Positions 5,015 to 25,007 of a stretch of 28,060 nt of DNA are shown one piece after another; positions within the stretch are counted from its first letter, which is position 1; each line of letters opens with the position of its first letter. Position numbers and translations under genes: made by a program. The notes beneath the pieces were generated by a model. It saw nothing but the letters and a program-made list of their open reading frames with translations, was not told the origin of the DNA and ran no database searches. The stretch is from a virus. Taxonomy: Duplodnaviria; Heunggongvirae; Uroviricota; Caudoviricetes. The DNA lies in the IMG/VR virus record IMGVR_UViG_2728369593_000002. The stretch is one strand, 5' to 3'.

Positions 5015-5527
5015 ATGACAACTCAAATTTCTGTTGAAACTCTCTCCCCGATCACCCATAACCAGATTCCTGTTATTACCACCGAACTTTTGGCGCAGCT
5101 TTACGGCACTGAGCCGGTGCGCATTCGCCAGAATCATCATGAGAACAAAGTACGCTTCGTTGAAGGGAAACACTTTTTCAAAGTTGTTGGTAATGACCTT
5201 AAAGAATTGCGGGTAGCTTTAAACTACTCACAAAATTTGCGGGTTACTTTAAGTAACTCACAAAATTTGCAACCATCTTTAAGAGGGTTACAAATTTCCC
5301 CGAAAGCCCGCTCCCTCATCCTCTGGACAGAACGCGGAGCAGCCCGTCATGCCAAAATGCTCGAAACCGATCAGGCGTGGGATGTGTTCGAAAAAGCTGG
5401 AAGACTGCTATTTCAGACAAAAAGGATCCGTCAGCGCCAGCTTCATGCCAGAAAAAGTTTACGACACGCGAGTTCTCTGTTATCAGCGAGGCGGTGTCAC
5501 TGTTTCCACAATTCAGTTGCGGGATGA
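5015..5527 (+). CDS. ORF6N/KilA-N-like DNA-binding domain protein (antirepressor-like moron); the C-terminus probably continues in ORF 5349..5630 after a frame break
   Basis: N-terminal region (ITTELLAQLYGTEPVRIRQNHHENKVRFVEGKHFFKV ... LILWTERGAARHAKMLE) resembles the ORF6N domain. The last 35 residues of this frame are Arg-rich and look out of frame. Confidence 0.55.
   Translation: MTTQISVETLSPITHNQIPVITTELLAQLYGTEPVRIRQNHHENKVRFVEGKHFFKVVGNDLKELRVALNYSQNLRVTLSNSQNLQPSLRGLQISPKARSLILWTERGAARHAKMLETDQAWDVFEKAGRLLFQTKRIRQRQLHARKSLRHASSLLSARRCHCFHNSVAG
5205..5294 (+). repeat. three tandem, progressively degenerate copies of a 30-bp unit inside the ORF6N gene
   Basis: aattgcgggtagctttaaactactcacaaa / atttgcgggttactttaagtaactcacaaa / atttgcaaccatctttaagagggttacaaa; encodes LRVALNYSQN-LRVTLSNSQN-LQPSLRGLQI. 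Confidence 0.55.
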
Positions 5528-14620: not shown

Positions 14621-14642
14621 ATGGCCCCCCTGGCGGGGCCAT
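14621..14642 (+). promoter_or_regulatory. GC-rich RNA hairpin downstream of the capsid gene (no U-tract); possible transcript stabiliser or attenuator
   Basis: ATGGCCCC-CCTGGC-GGGGCCAT perfect 8-bp inverted repeat. Confidence 0.3.
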
Positions 14643-17875: not shown

Positions 17876-18317
17876 ATGTCTACCTATTCTTTTATGGATG
17901 TCACTGCGACGCTGACCGGGCCGACCGGTTCGATTGACCTCGGGTACGGTTCTGCAAGTTCTGAAGAGGGGATTGGTGGTTGCGATGGGCGGTCCTAAAA
18001 ACACCATGACCATCGGTGCTGATGGTGAAGTGATGCACAGCCTCCATGCAGATAAAAGCGGGACGATTACCGTTAACCTTCTGAAGACATCACCGACAAA
18101 TAAAAAATTGTCGCTGGCGTATAACGCACAGAGCCAGTCTTCTGCCACATGGGGGAATAACGTTATCGTGATCCGCAACAAGGTCAGCGGCGACATCATC
18201 ACGGCACGCAGTGTTGCGTTCCAGAAACAACCGGATAATGCCAACGCTAAAACCGGTAATACGATGCCGTGGGTGTTTGACTGCGGCAAGATTGACCAGT
18301 TTCTCGGGGAGTTTTAA
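17876..18317 (+). pseudogene. tail tube protein (DUF3277-like) with a +1 frame break near 17975-17976; may be real or a sequencing error
   Basis: ATG 17876 with GGGGAAG Shine-Dalgarno gives MSTYSFMDVTATLTGPTGSIDLGYGSASSEEGI, then stops after 7 more codons. The next frame continues VVAMGGPKNTMTIGADGEVMHSLHADKSG to 18317. Deleting one G in GATTGGTGG joins them into about 146 aa. Confidence 0.6.
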
Positions 18318-21916: not shown

Positions 21917-22951
21917 ATGTCGAAAAACTGGATGCGTCACTTTGAATTATTGCTTGTTGATGATAAGGGCGACGGGATAAAAATTTCTGAGCTTAAAGTC
22001 ACTTTCAATATTCAGAAAATGCCTGCGACCATATTTAATGGATTCGTTGGGAATTTTAAGGTTTATAACCTGTCCCCTACCACTCAGAACCGGATTATGC
22101 AGAAGGAGTTTTCGCGTATACAGGTTATTGCCGGATACAAGGGGCAACCGGATGCAGCAGGTAATTATCCTGATGAAAACGTTGGTATGATATTCAATGG
22201 AGATATCCGTTTTACTGTCACTGGTAAAGATAATGCCACAGACAGTTGGATCATGTTGCAGTGTATTGACAGCTGGGAAGGCCACCTGAACGCAAGTGTG
22301 AAAACCACAGTGGCAGCTGGCTGGAAGTACAGCGATCTTTTCAGTCTGGGTATGAAATCATTCGAACCATATGGCATCGAATCCGGCGCAGTTCCTGACA
22401 TGCCTGAAACGGTATTTCCCCGGGGTCGCGTTGTTTATCAAAACACATCAAGGTTGATGAATCATATCGCAGGGCAGTGTAAGGCTAACTGGTGGTATGA
22501 AAATAATCTGGTAAATATTGTTCCTGAAGATAAATATATTGGTGTTGCTACGGTGTTGAATGCTAACACCGGGCTTATCGGTATGCCACAGCAGACGATG
22601 GGAGCTGGCGTAAATGTCAGATGTCTGATTAATCCAAATATTAAGCTCGGTGGGCTTATTCGTCTGGATCAGGCATCTGTATACCGTGCCTCTTTGAGTA
22701 ATGACCAGGTAGCGAAATCGCCAGCACGACTGGATGAGTCTGAAAGCGACGGTAATCTCTACGTTAACGGTCTGCCAGGCATGTCACAGCCTGCCAGCAT
22801 TAATACTGACGGTGATTACATTGTGGGCAGCATTGATTATACTGGCGACACCCGAGGGCAGGCGTGGTATATGGACCTGCTTTGCCTGGCTAAAGGTGGC
22901 AAAGAACTATTGGCAAAAGGCACTTTGGACAAAGTCGGAGATGTAGAGTGA
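21917..22951 (+). CDS. baseplate hub-like protein
   Basis: 344 aa downstream of the tape measure and upstream of the spike; role inferred from position and size. Confidence 0.45.
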   Translation: MSKNWMRHFELLLVDDKGDGIKISELKVTFNIQKMPATIFNGFVGNFKVYNLSPTTQNRIMQKEFSRIQVIAGYKGQPDAAGNYPDENVGMIFNGDIRFTVTGKDNATDSWIMLQCIDSWEGHLNASVKTTVAAGWKYSDLFSLGMKSFEPYGIESGAVPDMPETVFPRGRVVYQNTSRLMNHIAGQCKANWWYENNLVNIVPEDKYIGVATVLNANTGLIGMPQQTMGAGVNVRCLINPNIKLGGLIRLDQASVYRASLSNDQVAKSPARLDESESDGNLYVNGLPGMSQPASINTDGDYIVGSIDYTGDTRGQAWYMDLLCLAKGGKELLAKGTLDKVGDVE

Positions 22952-22973
22952 AAAAAGTATTTTTTGGTTATTC

Positions 22974-23282
22974 TTGGCCCTGCCGTTAACAGTTTCGGCG
23001 GCAACGCAGTGCGGACCATTCCGCTTTGATGCTGGTAATGATGGCCTCATGCACATCAATGGTCAAAAGCCAGAAACACAAAAAATGACCTTTTTGAAAC
23101 AAAAAGACGATTTCGATAATGTCATGATGCAATGGATGTTACCTGATCCTAATACTGGACGTTGGTTAGGTATGGACTACATCAAACGAAACAAAAAAGC
23201 GATCCTCAACGTTGAAGTTATCCGCAAAAATATGGACGACCCTCGGGAGTTCTGGACGTATGATTGCCGGAAGGTGAAGTGA
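22974..23282 (+). CDS. small secreted/periplasmic protein (moron); likely true start GTG 22948, which requires a one-base frame correction in a T6 run
   Basis: Listed ORF begins at TTG with a truncated signal peptide. GTG 22948 (GGAG Shine-Dalgarno upstream) encodes VKKVFF, and with T7 instead of T6 (22960-22965) reads MKKVFFWLFLALPLTVSAA|TQCG, a complete signal peptide. Confidence 0.4.
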   Translation: MALPLTVSAATQCGPFRFDAGNDGLMHINGQKPETQKMTFLKQKDDFDNVMMQWMLPDPNTGRWLGMDYIKRNKKAILNVEVIRKNMDDPREFWTYDCRKVK

Positions 23283-23312
23283 TCTTTACCAACACAACTG
23301 TATTAATCATTG

Positions 23313-23352
23313 CTCTCTCATCTTGAATATGCGCTAATCTGTACATGTACAG
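23313..23352 (+). promoter_or_regulatory. candidate promoter (-35 TTGAAT 23313-23318; -10 TAATCT 23335-23340) with overlapping 14-bp perfect palindrome CTGTACATGTACAG (23339-23352) as putative operator
   Basis: Sigma-70-like hexamers with 16-bp spacer; the palindrome spans the -10/+1 region immediately upstream of the antitoxin Shine-Dalgarno. Confidence 0.45.
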
Positions 23353-23362
23353 AGAGGGTGCT

Positions 23363-23776
23363 ATGAAAACCATTACTTATACACAAATGCGTTCGGATTT
23401 ATCTGCCACGCTGGAATTGTTACGCTCAGGTGAGAGTGTAACGGTAACGCAACGGGGGAAGCCTGATACTGTTATCAGTGCAAAAACCGTTGATAAGGTG
23501 GTGTCTGGAAAAGAAATTAAGCCACAAAACAAAACGATAGATGCGCATCTTGCACAGTTAATTTCATCTAATTTATCCCCACAGGTAACGGAGGGAGTCA
23601 TGAAGTTTACTAAGCAATTAGATGTCCTTCTGCAGTCTGATGAGGCGCGCCAGGCAATGATGAAGGCTGCCAATGCTGCACTTGCCCTGCAGGGCGTATC
23701 AGAGTCATTTATTAAAGCTTTGCAACATACTCAGACTAAGCATGCGGAAATTATAAAAAAACTGGAAGATAAATAA
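23363..23776 (+). CDS. Phd/YefM-family antitoxin with long C-terminal extension (137 aa)
   Basis: N-terminus MKTITYTQMRSDLSATLELLRSGESVTVTQRGKPDTVI matches the Phd/YefM fold signature. GAGGG Shine-Dalgarno upstream; stop overlaps the Doc start (TAATG). Confidence 0.7.
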   Translation: MKTITYTQMRSDLSATLELLRSGESVTVTQRGKPDTVISAKTVDKVVSGKEIKPQNKTIDAHLAQLISSNLSPQVTEGVMKFTKQLDVLLQSDEARQAMMKAANAALALQGVSESFIKALQHTQTKHAEIIKKLEDK

Positions 23777-24183
23777 TGGCTGAGATTACGTTTCTTTCGG
23801 TTGATGAGGTTATTGCGATTCAGAAAAGTACGCTGCCGAACAGCGGGCAGCCTGATATAGGTAAGCTCGAAGGTGCCCTGAACAGGGTGCATAATCTGCA
23901 CATATATGAAGGCTGTGAGGATTTATTTAAATTTGCCGCTATGTATATGGTAGCAATAGCGAAGTCTCACGCTTTTAACGATGCCAACAAGCGAACAGCT
24001 TTCCAGGCCACCAGCATTTTCTTGCTAATGAATGGCTATGAACTTAACACCTCCATGGAGTTGGTGAAGTTGACTATCTTTGCTGCTACTGGAGAAGCTG
24101 ATTGTGATAATACTGCACTGGCACTAAAACTCTTGTCAGATTATAAGAATGAGCTGCTGGCAGACACGATTACTGGATACTGA
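23776..24183 (+). CDS. doc: Doc (death-on-curing) Fic-family toxin
   Basis: 135 aa with the Doc active-site motif HAFNDANKRTA; translationally coupled to the upstream Phd-like gene. Confidence 0.85.
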   Translation: MAEITFLSVDEVIAIQKSTLPNSGQPDIGKLEGALNRVHNLHIYEGCEDLFKFAAMYMVAIAKSHAFNDANKRTAFQATSIFLLMNGYELNTSMELVKLTIFAATGEADCDNTALALKLLSDYKNELLADTITGY

Positions 24184-24215
24184 TAGCGTATCAACGGTAA
24201 ACGTAAAATGTGTAT

Positions 24216-24239
24216 AACCCGCCGTCGAGCGGGTTTTTT
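24216..24239 (+). terminator. intrinsic terminator downstream of doc
   Basis: AACCCGC-CGTCGA-GCGGGTT hairpin followed by a T6 run. Confidence 0.6.
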
Positions 24240-24254
24240 ATGTCTGGAGAAAAT

Positions 24255-25007
24255 ATGCCAGTTTCACTTTCCTCTCAACTCGGCAGTAAAGAACAGGCCG
24301 ATGTAAGACTTGCTGGTTCTGTCATGTCGGTGCTGCGTGTTTCTATGCCCGGTATCGTCCAGTCATTTGATCAGGACACGGTAACGGTAGTTGTTCAACC
24401 AGCGATTAAAGGTTATGAGCCGGACTCAAATGGAATCAACCAGTCGACGACATTACCCCTGCTGGTGGATGTGCCAGTGGTATTTCCGCGCGGCGGAGGC
24501 TGTACGTTGACTTTTCCGGTAAAAGCCGGTGATGAATGTCTGGTGATTTTTTCCGATCGTTGTATTGATTTCTGGTGGCAGAACGGCGGGATACAGGAGC
24601 CGGTCGATGACAGAATGCATGATTTATCGGATGCATTTTGTATTGTCGGTCCCCAGTCGCAGGCGAGGAAGATTAGCGGTATTAATACCAGTGCCACACA
24701 GTTGCGTAGTGACGACGGCAGCACCTATTTTGAGCTTAATCCTGATACCAGGAAAATTAAAATTGTCGCTCCGGGTGGTCTTGATGTGGTTGCCCCTCTG
24801 GCTGATTTTTCTGAGAAAGTAACCATTCATGGCCTGTTAACCTGGATGGGGGGCATGGTGGGGTCTGTGGTTTCTGGTGTGGCTTCAAAAATCACTGGTG
24901 CTGTTGAGTTCTTGGGGAGCGTGAAGGCTAACGGCAAGCCAATCGATGATACGCACACTCATGGTGGTGTTCAGCGCGGTGGAAGCAGTACCGACGGGGT
25001 AAACTGA
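24255..25007 (+). CDS. baseplate spike/assembly protein (gpV-like)
   Basis: ATG 24255 with GGAG Shine-Dalgarno; the listed 24210 start lies inside the terminator. Gly-rich C-terminus with a THTHGG motif. Confidence 0.6.
   Translation: MPVSLSSQLGSKEQADVRLAGSVMSVLRVSMPGIVQSFDQDTVTVVVQPAIKGYEPDSNGINQSTTLPLLVDVPVVFPRGGGCTLTFPVKAGDECLVIFSDRCIDFWWQNGGIQEPVDDRMHDLSDAFCIVGPQSQARKISGINTSATQLRSDDGSTYFELNPDTRKIKIVAPGGLDVVAPLADFSEKVTIHGLLTWMGGMVGSVVSGVASKITGAVEFLGSVKANGKPIDDTHTHGGVQRGGSSTDGVN

Follow-up and report, generated by a model that had tools for sequence, protein, structure and literature searches.

The window (the whole 28,060 bp stretch of DNA analysed here, draft contig AKYH01000082.1) carries one copy of a small gene in the slot between the baseplate hub and tail spike genes. 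The best overall explanation, and on balance a probable one, is that this gene belongs to a family of exported phage proteins with a fixed place in the tail module, that it would serve in some form of conflict, and that it is inactivated here by a one-base deletion in a run of seven Ts. The frame break is real in the window sequence, but it is not the native state of the gene. The initial annotation had placed a protein of about 110 aa, with a signal peptide and two cysteines, after the hub and before a Phd/Doc module. Profile matches bear out the position, and the corrected product is 111 aa long with both features. The gene had also been called AT-rich, which holds weakly; its GC content is 41-43%, against 47-51% in the flanks.

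Gene Layout

The features of the slot are collected in Table 1. The small gene is translationally coupled to the hub gene, and the toxin-antitoxin genes that follow it lie in the variable part of the slot.

Table 1. Features of the hub-to-spike slot and its boundaries, in window coordinates.
Feature	Position	Strand	Basis
Baseplate hub gene, 344 aa (Pfam E217_GP41, phrog_196), translationally coupled to the small gene	21917..22951	+	profile matches
Promoter-like site ATTACA-17-TATACT within the hub 3' end (-10 TATACT at 22838-22843)	22815..22843	+	scan
Hypervariable exchangeable cassette, last ~45 nt of the hub gene to about codon 88 of the small gene	22906..23210	+	identity profile L007 vs L003, 258 locus pairs
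Shine-Dalgarno GGAG, 7 nt ahead of GTG 22948	22937..22940	+	sequence reading
Small exported-protein gene (STY1065/STY2022 family, PHROG 3443), frame-broken here	22948..23282	+	profile match, reading
5' fragment of the small gene: GTG start overlapping the hub stop, 13 codons, TAA	22948..22989	+	sequence reading
Lesion, T6-GG where relatives have T7-G-T (one-base deletion plus adjacent T>G)	22960..22967	+	alignment
Remaining TTG ORF, 102 aa, without Shine-Dalgarno	22974..23282	+	ORF reading
Phd/Doc toxin-antitoxin cargo, variable part of the slot	23363..24183	+	profile matches
Phd	23363-23776	+	profile matches
Doc	23776-24183	+	profile matches
Intrinsic-terminator hairpin AACCCGCCGTCGAGCGGGTT followed by T6, just 5' of the spike ribosome-binding site	24216..24241	+	scan; all 30 loci
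Tail spike gene (250 aa), which bounds the slot on the right	24255..25007	+	profile matches, relatives

Frame Break at the Start of the Small Gene

The start codon GTG 22948 and the hub stop share a GTGA overlap. Read from this GTG, the window gives GTG AAA AAA GTA TTT TTT GGT TAT TCT TGG CCC TGC CGT TAA, and the frame closes at 22987-22989. The rest of the gene is one base out of frame, as had been proposed for the T run. The ORF that remains, from TTG 22974 to a stop at 23280-23282, lies one base back from the frame of the GTG and has lost all but about 10 residues of the signal peptide (MALPLTVSAA); the n- and h-regions are missing. One base added to the T run (or to the A run) yields MKKVFFWLFLALPLTVSAATQCGPF...; the product is then 111 aa long, begins with a canonical signal peptide and has its two cysteines at codons 23010-23012 and 23265-23267.

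In relatives this GTG starts an uninterrupted reading frame of 111 aa (336 nt in the intact homologue). Where the window reads GTATTTTTTGGTTATTC, relatives with this allele read GTATTTTTTTGTTTATTC (10 E. coli/NCBI loci, 13/14 IMG/VR contigs and 7/7 metagenome contigs). The run is T7-G-T3 in the relatives that carry the allele and T6-GG-T2 in the window. Among the more than 100 loci examined from E. coli, IMG/VR and metagenomes, the sole exception is L025/L078, which has a plain T6 run. L025, an independent IMG/VR contig, shows a plain T7-to-T6 change and zero other indels over 10 kb, so slippage here is either a genuine event or an error that recurs. The truncated TTG product is known only from contig AKYH01000082.1, and an exact-pattern scan of species-representative genomes returned zero copies of the window's allele. 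We found no family of homologues that starts at the TTG without a signal peptide, so the first of the conditions that the initial annotation had named for its own refutation does not hold.

The frame break is most probably a sequencing or assembly error, since the window has four further unique one-base indels relative to prophages that are 99.7-99.9% identical to it. They break the tail tube gene in two and cut the tape-measure gene short. Four of the five unique indels are single-base insertions, two of which lengthen runs (G4 to G5 and A6 to A7) and two of which duplicate a single G. Compared with L007, which is otherwise identical over 9 kb, the window differs only by three one-base indels and two substitutions, one adjoining a homopolymer run and one inside the small-gene lesion. 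Compared with L155 (99.7%), it has five unique indels and eight substitutions outside one mosaic patch.

A less likely account is that the frameshift is genuine and that the small gene is one of several real pseudogenes in a decaying prophage. Decay of prophages is common, the tube, tape-measure and other genes of the contig are also frame-broken, and L025 shows an isolated change at the same run. Against this, five unique indels to eight substitutions in the comparison with a 99.7% relative, and three to two in that with L007, is a ratio typical of base-calling error and not of neutral decay. The preponderance of single-base insertions that extend runs or double a G, the position of both L007 substitutions next to runs, and the restriction of the allele to one draft assembly argue in the same direction. 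Programmed -1 ribosomal frameshifting, transcriptional slippage or phase variation at the A6/T6 runs, as a control on expression of the exported protein, is highly improbable and we reject it: a -1 shift at GTG-AAA-AAA-G or A-TTT-TTT-G would restore the full signal peptide, and run length has changed independently in two contigs, but neither the out-of-frame arrangement nor the slippery run is conserved in relatives. Relatives that carry the window's allele have T7 and read in frame. Elsewhere in the family the signal-peptide codons mostly lack such a run; one of at least 6 occurs only in L016 (T6), L043 (T8), L013 and L042 (A6) and L059 (A7), with the A6/T7 pair in none. T6/T7 is also short for phase variation.

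The one-base problem itself is without biological weight. It warns of homopolymer-type errors in the contig, whose apparent pseudogenes (tail tube, tape measure and small gene) should not be over-interpreted.

Protein Family, Export and Predicted Fold

The small protein corresponds to the "STY1065/STY2022 family phage-derived protein" of NCBI's PGAP (WP_000755137.1) and to PHROG 3443. The phrog_3443 profile matches both the window ORF (E 1.1e-46) and the intact homologue (E 9.1e-48), and with one base corrected the window protein is 98% identical to WP_000755137.1-type proteins. As given, the window copy lacks the intact ORF of about 111 aa with a signal peptide that characterizes the family; with one base added it has it. 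The family is already catalogued, with its function unassigned in PGAP and PHROG, and its members come almost exclusively from Enterobacterales prophages. We found 134 homologues and a dN/dS of about 0.17, which together indicate a real gene. Searches of Pfam, NCBIfam and PADLOC gave no match, a PDB sequence search gave only chance matches to nanobodies, and a literature search returned nothing on the STY1065/STY2022 family. The large repetitive proteins P0187, P0191 and P0193 among the weak profile matches were discarded as spurious.

Export to the envelope is predicted from signal peptides and lipoboxes. A simple signal-peptide test was passed by 98/101 full-length homologues, and one sub-family consists of lipoproteins of about 290 aa (lipobox VAGC/VSGC) with the small-protein domain at the C-terminus. 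The native 111-aa precursor would be exported by the Sec pathway and cleaved after an A-x-A site (VSA/SAA). The two cysteines, in CGPF... and ...YDC, are invariant across the family. The predicted structure is an 8-stranded beta-barrel (pLDDT 86.6), in which the cysteines (Cys22 and Cys107) would lie on the first and last strands and probably form a disulfide. The structure-based search suggested by the initial annotation gave generic barrels only and no relative specific to the small protein.

Fixed Position, Allele Exchange and Arrays

The small gene lies in the hub-to-spike slot in every related prophage and phage examined, down to 28% identity (SEN34, Mulock, vB_EcoM-611R5 and 26 Enterobacterales species). 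Among the loci examined, the family is always in this one tail-module context and never elsewhere. Only the downstream cargo comes and goes between relatives. The small gene marks a cargo hotspot that holds toxin-antitoxin pairs, here Phd/Doc, and HEPN-like pairs. In SEN34-like temperate myoviruses the small gene holds a permanent place in an accessory slot flanked by hub and spike, and extra cargo inserts between it and the conserved terminator.

The occupant is fixed and its alleles are not. The tail module is conserved on the whole, and the small protein is its most variable gene product. We compared 258 locus pairs whose hub and spike are at least 95% identical; the mature small protein was less than 80% identical in 116 of them, with a minimum of 63.6% and a bimodal distribution. 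In the comparison of L007 with L003 the flanks of the cassette are about 100% identical between alleles. Two prophages co-resident in Pantoea dispersa are 97.7% identical in the hub, 96% in the spike and 73% in the small protein.

Tandem arrays are found in two of the 26 species loci and in none of the 80 IMG/VR loci. L057 (Serratia aquatilis) has a tandem array of seven to eight copies with short hub remnants, and L059 (Pseudescherichia vulneris) has four tandem copies in 261-nt repeats that span the hub 3' end. Each array copy bears a remnant of the hub 3' end. In 13/80 IMG/VR loci, 3' scars mark copies that were displaced. The hub fragments in the arrays show about 93% protein identity as far as ...CEARGADDL and diverge in the last 10-12 residues alone; this varying tail may be no more than the small gene's ribosome-binding region. 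The family, uncharacterised so far, is encoded by an exchanged cassette that is occasionally amplified into arrays, which we regard as of moderate interest.

Transcription Signals

The terminator is at the same place in 30/30 loci checked, with compensatory changes in its stem, and it is the only clean plus-strand terminator in 20 kb of late genes. It would close the slot just before the spike gene. Upstream, the GTGA overlap couples the small gene to the hub gene, so the small gene is at least co-expressed with the late tail genes. The promoter-like element inside the hub 3' end may additionally drive it. The scan score of this element is not above the shuffle expectation, and the Tyr-Thr codons beneath its -10 are almost invariant at synonymous sites (ACT in 28/29). 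The -10 is missing from the array-bearing loci L057 and L059, and the array cassettes show no recurrent promoter signal. Taken together, the synonymous conservation at the promoter-like site and the conserved terminator suggest expression of the small gene in the lysogen.

Possible Functions

An accessory, conflict-type role would fit the evolutionary pattern of the small gene. Tentatively, the protein may be a periplasmic specificity factor in phage-phage or phage-envelope conflict. Superinfection exclusion would be the likeliest version of this role. The protein would exclude by binding something shown in the periplasm by the incoming tail tip or by its receptor, and the variable N-terminal half of the barrel would set specificity. 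Against this, exclusion factors are not usually found throughout a phage lineage, as the small gene is. The small protein has no homology to characterised superinfection-exclusion proteins of the Sp, Sim or Llp/Cor type.

A cognate partner among the tail-tip proteins was considered and rejected. Very different small proteins are found on closely related backbones whose tape measure, Dit, plug, hub and spike are near-identical, so simple cognate pairing with them is not supported. The Mantel correlation of the small protein is r = 0.58 with the hub, 0.35 with the plug and 0.33 with the spike.

A more elaborate version of the specificity-factor reading is possible though doubtful. The SEN34-like myoviruses may carry an exchangeable cassette for a disulfide-stapled periplasmic barrel, sometimes a lipoprotein, that sets exclusion- or immunity-like specificity. 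Recombination would exchange the alleles, from the hub 3' end to the conserved 3' end of the small gene. Displaced or surplus alleles would pile up as arrays with hub-fragment scars, much like the orphan immunity genes of CDI, Rhs and T6SS loci. A promoter hidden in the hub coding sequence would drive the cassette, and the conserved terminator would insulate it from the late genes. Such an "immunity cassette" would be a class of phage system not described before. If the protein is an exclusion or specificity factor, it would offer a simple and testable handle on mutual exclusion among related prophages of E. coli, Salmonella and Klebsiella, which matters for prophage ecology and for the treatment of lysogens by phage therapy.

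Three other functions were weighed against a specificity factor. It is rather unlikely that the protein serves in lysogenic conversion, with the host envelope or an animal or plant host as its target (e.g., in serum resistance or adhesion), and has nothing to do with exclusion. An exported protein in a promoter- and terminator-bounded slot of a temperate phage (the promoter being putative) would suit such a role, as would allele variation within one host species. The confinement of the family to one phage tail-module context in the loci examined and its translational coupling to a late structural gene count against it, the arrays with hub remnants resemble collected specificities, and there is no similarity to known virulence factors.

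More unlikely still is inhibition of a peptidoglycan hydrolase in the periplasm, in the manner of PliC/MliC, Ivy or T4 Spackle, directed for example at the lytic-transglycosylase part of the tape measure of incoming phages. The small protein has no Pfam MliC match, and PliC ranks only 53rd among the generic barrels. Prophage pairs with small proteins that differ by 25-35% have tape-measure genes 94-99% identical. Variation in the central region of the tape measure does not follow small-protein type, and the window's tape measure has no SLT Pfam match.

The least likely of the three is a virion or tail-assembly component whose hydrophobic N-terminus is no signal peptide, even though the gene is flanked by two baseplate genes, shares bases with the hub stop codon and is carried by the whole lineage. 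The conserved A-x-A cleavage sites and the lipobox-bearing paralogues speak against it, the two invariant cysteines suit an oxidising compartment, and variation of up to 36% on tail backbones at least 95% identical is unlike a structural subunit. The E217 virion structure has the hub fold in common with these phages; gp41 (hub) and gp43 (tip) are built in it, and gp42 is never mentioned (PMC10329688).

Comparison with Known Systems

Once corrected by one base, the window copy agrees with the STY1065/STY2022 family in length, signal peptide, the two cysteines and the position after the hub; as given, it differs in its broken frame. Neither a Pfam or NCBIfam HMM match nor a solved structure exists for the family. 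The likeness to avidin/streptavidin-like barrels, to other 8-stranded calycin barrels and to PliC/MliC is one of generic fold only, at 4-11% identity and with no Pfam match.

The Spackle protein (Sp) of T4 prevents superinfection from the periplasm by blocking gp5, the lysozyme of the tail tip. It is all-helical and is an early gene of a lytic phage. Spackle and the small protein are both phage-encoded, of about 100 aa and equipped with a signal peptide; action in the periplasm on an incoming tail tip is hypothetical for the small protein. Our searches turned up no sequence or fold similarity between the two, and a tail-tip protein target is not supported here.

T5 Llp and Cor of phi80 and N15 are outer-membrane lipoproteins that mask the receptor FhuA. 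Like the small protein they are small exported proteins encoded beside tail genes, and some members of the small-protein family are lipoproteins. Most members, however, have a signal peptidase I signal and not a lipobox, and there is no homology. A receptor-side target, as with Llp and Cor, would explain why the small protein varies independently of the tail-tip proteins.

The tandem genes of L057 and L059, each following a 3' remnant of the upstream gene, resemble the orphan toxin-fragment/immunity arrays of CDI, Rhs and T6SS systems, and cassette replacement on a conserved backbone is common to both. The hub of the SEN34-like loci differs in having no toxin domain.

The morons of lambdoid phages are promoter-gene-terminator units inside late operons, e.g., HK97 gp15. 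The small gene had been called a moron, and that label stands only in part. It is not a sporadic insertion, being present in all relatives, its start overlaps the upstream structural gene, and its promoter is putative. What it has in common with morons is its place in a late tail operon, the strong conserved terminator downstream and a slightly lower GC content; it may also have a promoter of its own.

Frame break in the small secreted-protein gene

The finding in the window is real but ordinary: it is a broken copy of a named, uncharacterised exported prophage protein. The initial annotation described its reading frame accurately. A GTG at 22948 overlaps the hub stop codon (GTGA) and its frame runs for 13 codons to a TAA at 22987-22989, and the remaining ORF starts downstream at a TTG (Table). 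Adding a single base to the T run, or to the A run before it, fuses the two parts into MKKVFFWLFLALPLTVSAATQCGPF...YDCRKVK, a product of 111 aa. The gene has a GC content of 41-43%, vs. 47-51% in its flanks.

A megablast search of complete E. coli genomes found the gene in 54 genomes, and the annotated E. coli records that were fetched list it as a CDS of 336 nt that overlaps the hub stop codon. All relatives fetched that carry this allele have GTATTTTTTTGTTTATTC where the window has GTATTTTTTGGTTATTC; the intact reading is found in 13/14 IMG/VR contigs and 7/7 metagenome contigs carrying the allele. Thus, the window has a one-base deletion and an adjacent T>G change, and the gene in its native form lacks this frame break. 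The 102-aa truncated product was found on no further contig in the collection.

The broken copy probably arose via sequence error. The window is the entire draft contig AKYH01000082.1 of GCA_001605745.1, which looks error-prone. Its tail tube gene is also split (40 + 113 aa), the tape-measure start is truncated by an insertion (652 vs. 668 aa), and the ORF6N gene is disturbed by four further homopolymer insertions. Compared with L007, a prophage locus otherwise identical over 9 kb, the window differs by three one-base indels and two substitutions and nothing more; one substitution adjoins a homopolymer run and the other is the T>G within the lesion. Outside one mosaic patch, the comparison with L155 (99.7% identical, 16.5 kb) gave eight substitutions and five unique one-base indels. 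A C5-to-C6 change at 14625 is common to both, and is therefore a real polymorphism. Among the single-base insertions relative to prophages of 98-99.9% identity, six extend a short run, one doubles a single T, and two double a single G. Indels are about as frequent as substitutions (ratio near 1) and are mostly insertions of these kinds, which points to base-calling error in the draft assembly. Real decay is a less likely explanation. An independent contig (IMGVR_UViG_2675903468_000011; L025/L078) has a clean T7-to-T6 contraction at the same run and zero other indels over 10 kb. Error or mutation thus recurs at this run. Because the run is not conserved across family members, neither programmed slippage nor phase variation is likely.

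Coordinates of features, in the window unless a related prophage or phage locus (L-number) is named; P-numbers are protein relatives
Feature	Position	Strand	Remark
Dit-like protein, Pam3_gp18-type plug, E217_gp41-type hub			upstream of small gene
Hub ORF	21917-22951	+	ORF reading
Promoter-like site ATTACA-17-TATACT	22815-22843		only such site near or upstream of small gene
GGAG (Shine-Dalgarno)	22937-22940	+	sequence reading
Long ORF from TTG	22974-23282	+	102 aa; frame one base back, without Shine-Dalgarno
Phd	23363-23776		downstream of small gene
Doc	23776-24183		downstream of Phd
Cargo slot	23283-24215; L011 5457-6628; L053 4445-5594; L060 4384-5545; L061 4403-5588; L006 5507-5746; L058 3106-3701		
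Terminator hairpin	24216-24241	+	mid late tail operon
Split tail tube gene	17876-17998 plus 17934-18317		effect of single-base insertion
Indels vs. L007	17975; 18981; small gene		+G in tube gene; +G at tape-measure start; deletion
Unique one-base indels vs. L155	7798, 14838, 17975, 18981, 22967		
Single-base insertions vs. 98-99.9% identical prophages	5391, 5419, 5456-5458, 7798, 14838, 17975, 18981, 27567		
Array, Serratia aquatilis NZ_CP173186.1 (complete chromosome)	L057 1695-6583		7-8 divergent copies, hub-spike interval
Array, Pseudescherichia vulneris NBRC 102420	L059 629-2849		4 copies, hub-spike interval
Lipoprotein fusion sub-family	L060 3434-4300; L062 3422-4312		P0121-P0139; lipobox VAGC/VSGC/VTGC
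Extra small gene	L014 3828-4250; L016 3827-4273; L015 3824-4336		L014 is SEN34 gp21

Protein family

The intact protein is WP_000755137.1, named by PGAP as a STY1065/STY2022 family phage-derived protein. It matches PHROG 3443, listed there as function unknown; Pfam, NCBIfam, and PADLOC gave no match. Among 5.8 billion proteins searched there were 134 relatives of 108-122 aa, the named ones all from Enterobacterales. Only 56 clusters came out of an exhaustive profile search across 1.84 billion representatives; the family is therefore small. Median dN/dS is ~0.17. An alignment of 31 diverse members has 19 invariant columns, including both cysteines noted in the initial annotation, which may form a disulfide. 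The signal peptide proposed there is likewise supported: a positive n-region, hydrophobic core, and small-x-small cleavage site occur in 98 of the 101 members with a full N-terminus, shorter database entries being truncated gene calls. The domain also forms the C-terminal part of a lipobox-bearing lipoprotein of ~290 aa, known from Phytobacter, Enterobacter, Dickeya, and others. Together, the signal peptides and lipobox fusions give good support to the predicted export to the envelope. A beta-barrel fold is also predicted with good support from modeling. In the fusion sub-family the barrel domain lies behind the lipoprotein signal and a ~180-aa helical N-terminal domain, which contains at least four conserved motifs, plus two additional cysteines that are also conserved, and has no recognizable relative by Pfam or fold matching.

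Position, cargo slot, and transcription signals

The gene lies between the hub and Phd/Doc, as originally placed, and the spike that follows Doc has an OB-fold domain at its N-terminus and a GpV apex motif. One arrangement, with the hub first, then the small gene, any cargo, and the spike, is kept in all E. coli prophages examined, in 26 loci representing one Enterobacterales species each (representative genomes), and in Salmonella phage SEN34, Klebsiella phages Mulock and ST340-VIM1phi10.1, and E. coli phage vB_EcoM-611R5, where the small protein is only 28-35% identical to that of the window. Small gene and spike are 65 bp to 1.8 kb apart, and this stretch is a cargo hotspot that holds Phd/Doc, DUF4282, HEPN-like pairs, membrane proteins, or further small secreted proteins; the majority of this cargo had no PADLOC or Pfam match. 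Since the cargo varies and the small gene is constant, the toxin-antitoxin cassette is the variable moron and the small gene the fixed resident. Calling the latter a moron was thus only partly apt: the terminator-bounded slot fits the term, and its presence in every related locus examined does not.

Phd/Doc occurs in the slot twice independently, and Mu-F-like small proteins are also among the cargo. Two-gene modules (~265 aa plus ~130-165 aa) recur; the small partner has a weak HEPN_IX match in L011 and a common RxxYY(S/A) motif in L053, L060, and L061. A perfect palindrome, TGTACATGTACA, at 23340-23351 just 5′ of the phd start is likely the Phd/Doc operator. The SEN34, Mulock, and vB_EcoM-611R5 branch has an extra small gene (140-170 aa) after the secreted-protein gene, and its SEN34 product has an N-terminal hydrophobic segment.

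A strong hairpin of intrinsic-terminator type (AACCCGC-loop-GCGGGTT plus T6-7) precedes the ribosome-binding site of the spike gene by 12-20 nt in 30/30 loci inspected (besides the window, L001, L003, L011, L013, L015, L016, and L038-L063). It is kept whatever the cargo, its stem shows compensatory changes, and across 20 kb of late genes in the window no other clean terminator lies on the + strand. The −10 of the promoter-like site (22838-22843) overlies the hub codons Tyr-Thr (TAT-ACT). Across 30 distinct hub sequences their synonymous positions are near-invariant (ACT 28/29, 0.22 bit), vs. freely varying four-fold codons next to the −10 (1.5-1.9 bit). This pattern suggests a putative internal promoter within the hub 3′ end. 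With promoter and terminator, the slot could be an autonomous unit readable in the lysogen, and lambdoid Q-type antitermination would carry late transcription through the slot terminator. A Q-like gene is present.

Cassette exchange and arrays

Within a tail module that is otherwise conserved, nothing varies as much as the small gene. Among 258 locus pairs in which the hub (residues 1-300) and spike are each at least 95% identical, the mature small protein is <80% identical in 116 (minimum 63.6%), with a bimodal distribution. Between the E. coli alleles L007 and L003, nucleotide identity is ~100% up to ~45 nt short of the hub stop, falls abruptly to 20-70% as far as ~codon 88 in the small gene (window ~22906-23210), and is back at 100% thereafter, Phd/Doc included. 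Two prophages co-resident in Pantoea dispersa S68 have nearly identical tail proteins (Dit 100%, hub 97.7%, spike 96%) but only 73% identity in the small protein. In such pairs the DNA upstream (tape measure, Dit, plug, and hub) keeps 94-99% identity, so the small protein varies without following those tail-tip proteins.

In 13/80 IMG/VR loci (remnant loci L066-L078, L141, L143, and L144; e.g., L066 5339-5413) the last 25 aa of a second copy persist as a remnant, 5 nt past the intact gene's stop; the window has no such remnant. The remnant is a scar of cassette replacement.

Two loci hold tandem arrays of divergent copies, in which each copy follows the remnant of a hub 3′ end. The Serratia aquatilis array has mostly intact copies with signal peptides, a single frame-shifted copy, and an inserted IS element (transposase). 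In Pseudescherichia vulneris a hub 3′-end copy of ~190 nt precedes each of the four copies. Among these hub copies the DNA diverges by up to 30% and the protein hardly at all, which argues that the cassettes were imported from different phages with the donor hub end.

Possible function

The initial reading as a periplasmic accessory factor is reasonable. Export, diversifying cassette exchange, arrays, and the terminator-bounded cargo hotspot lead us to propose, tentatively and at somewhat less than even confidence, a specificity factor in conflict, most simply superinfection exclusion. The universally conserved terminator-bounded slot with its allele cassettes and occasional arrays is the part worth experiment. 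None of the hub, spike, plug, Dit, and tape-measure proteins is the target in a simple cognate sense. The protein may act on a periplasm-exposed part of the incoming tail or, alternatively, on the receptor side, where T5 Llp and Cor act. Past the position of the window's 3′ end, related E. coli prophages (L012 29112-30786) have a pinE-type invertase beside tail-fibre and assembly genes of opposite orientation. Host range may therefore be switchable, making it harder to link the small protein to one receptor.

Rivals to a specificity factor are a peptidoglycan-hydrolase inhibitor, a lysogenic-conversion factor, and a structural component. With regard to the last, hub gp41 and tip gp43 are built in the E217 cryo-EM paper, which nowhere mentions gp42 (PMC10329688); this is compatible with a non-virion gene at this position in distant relatives, gp42 being compared by position.
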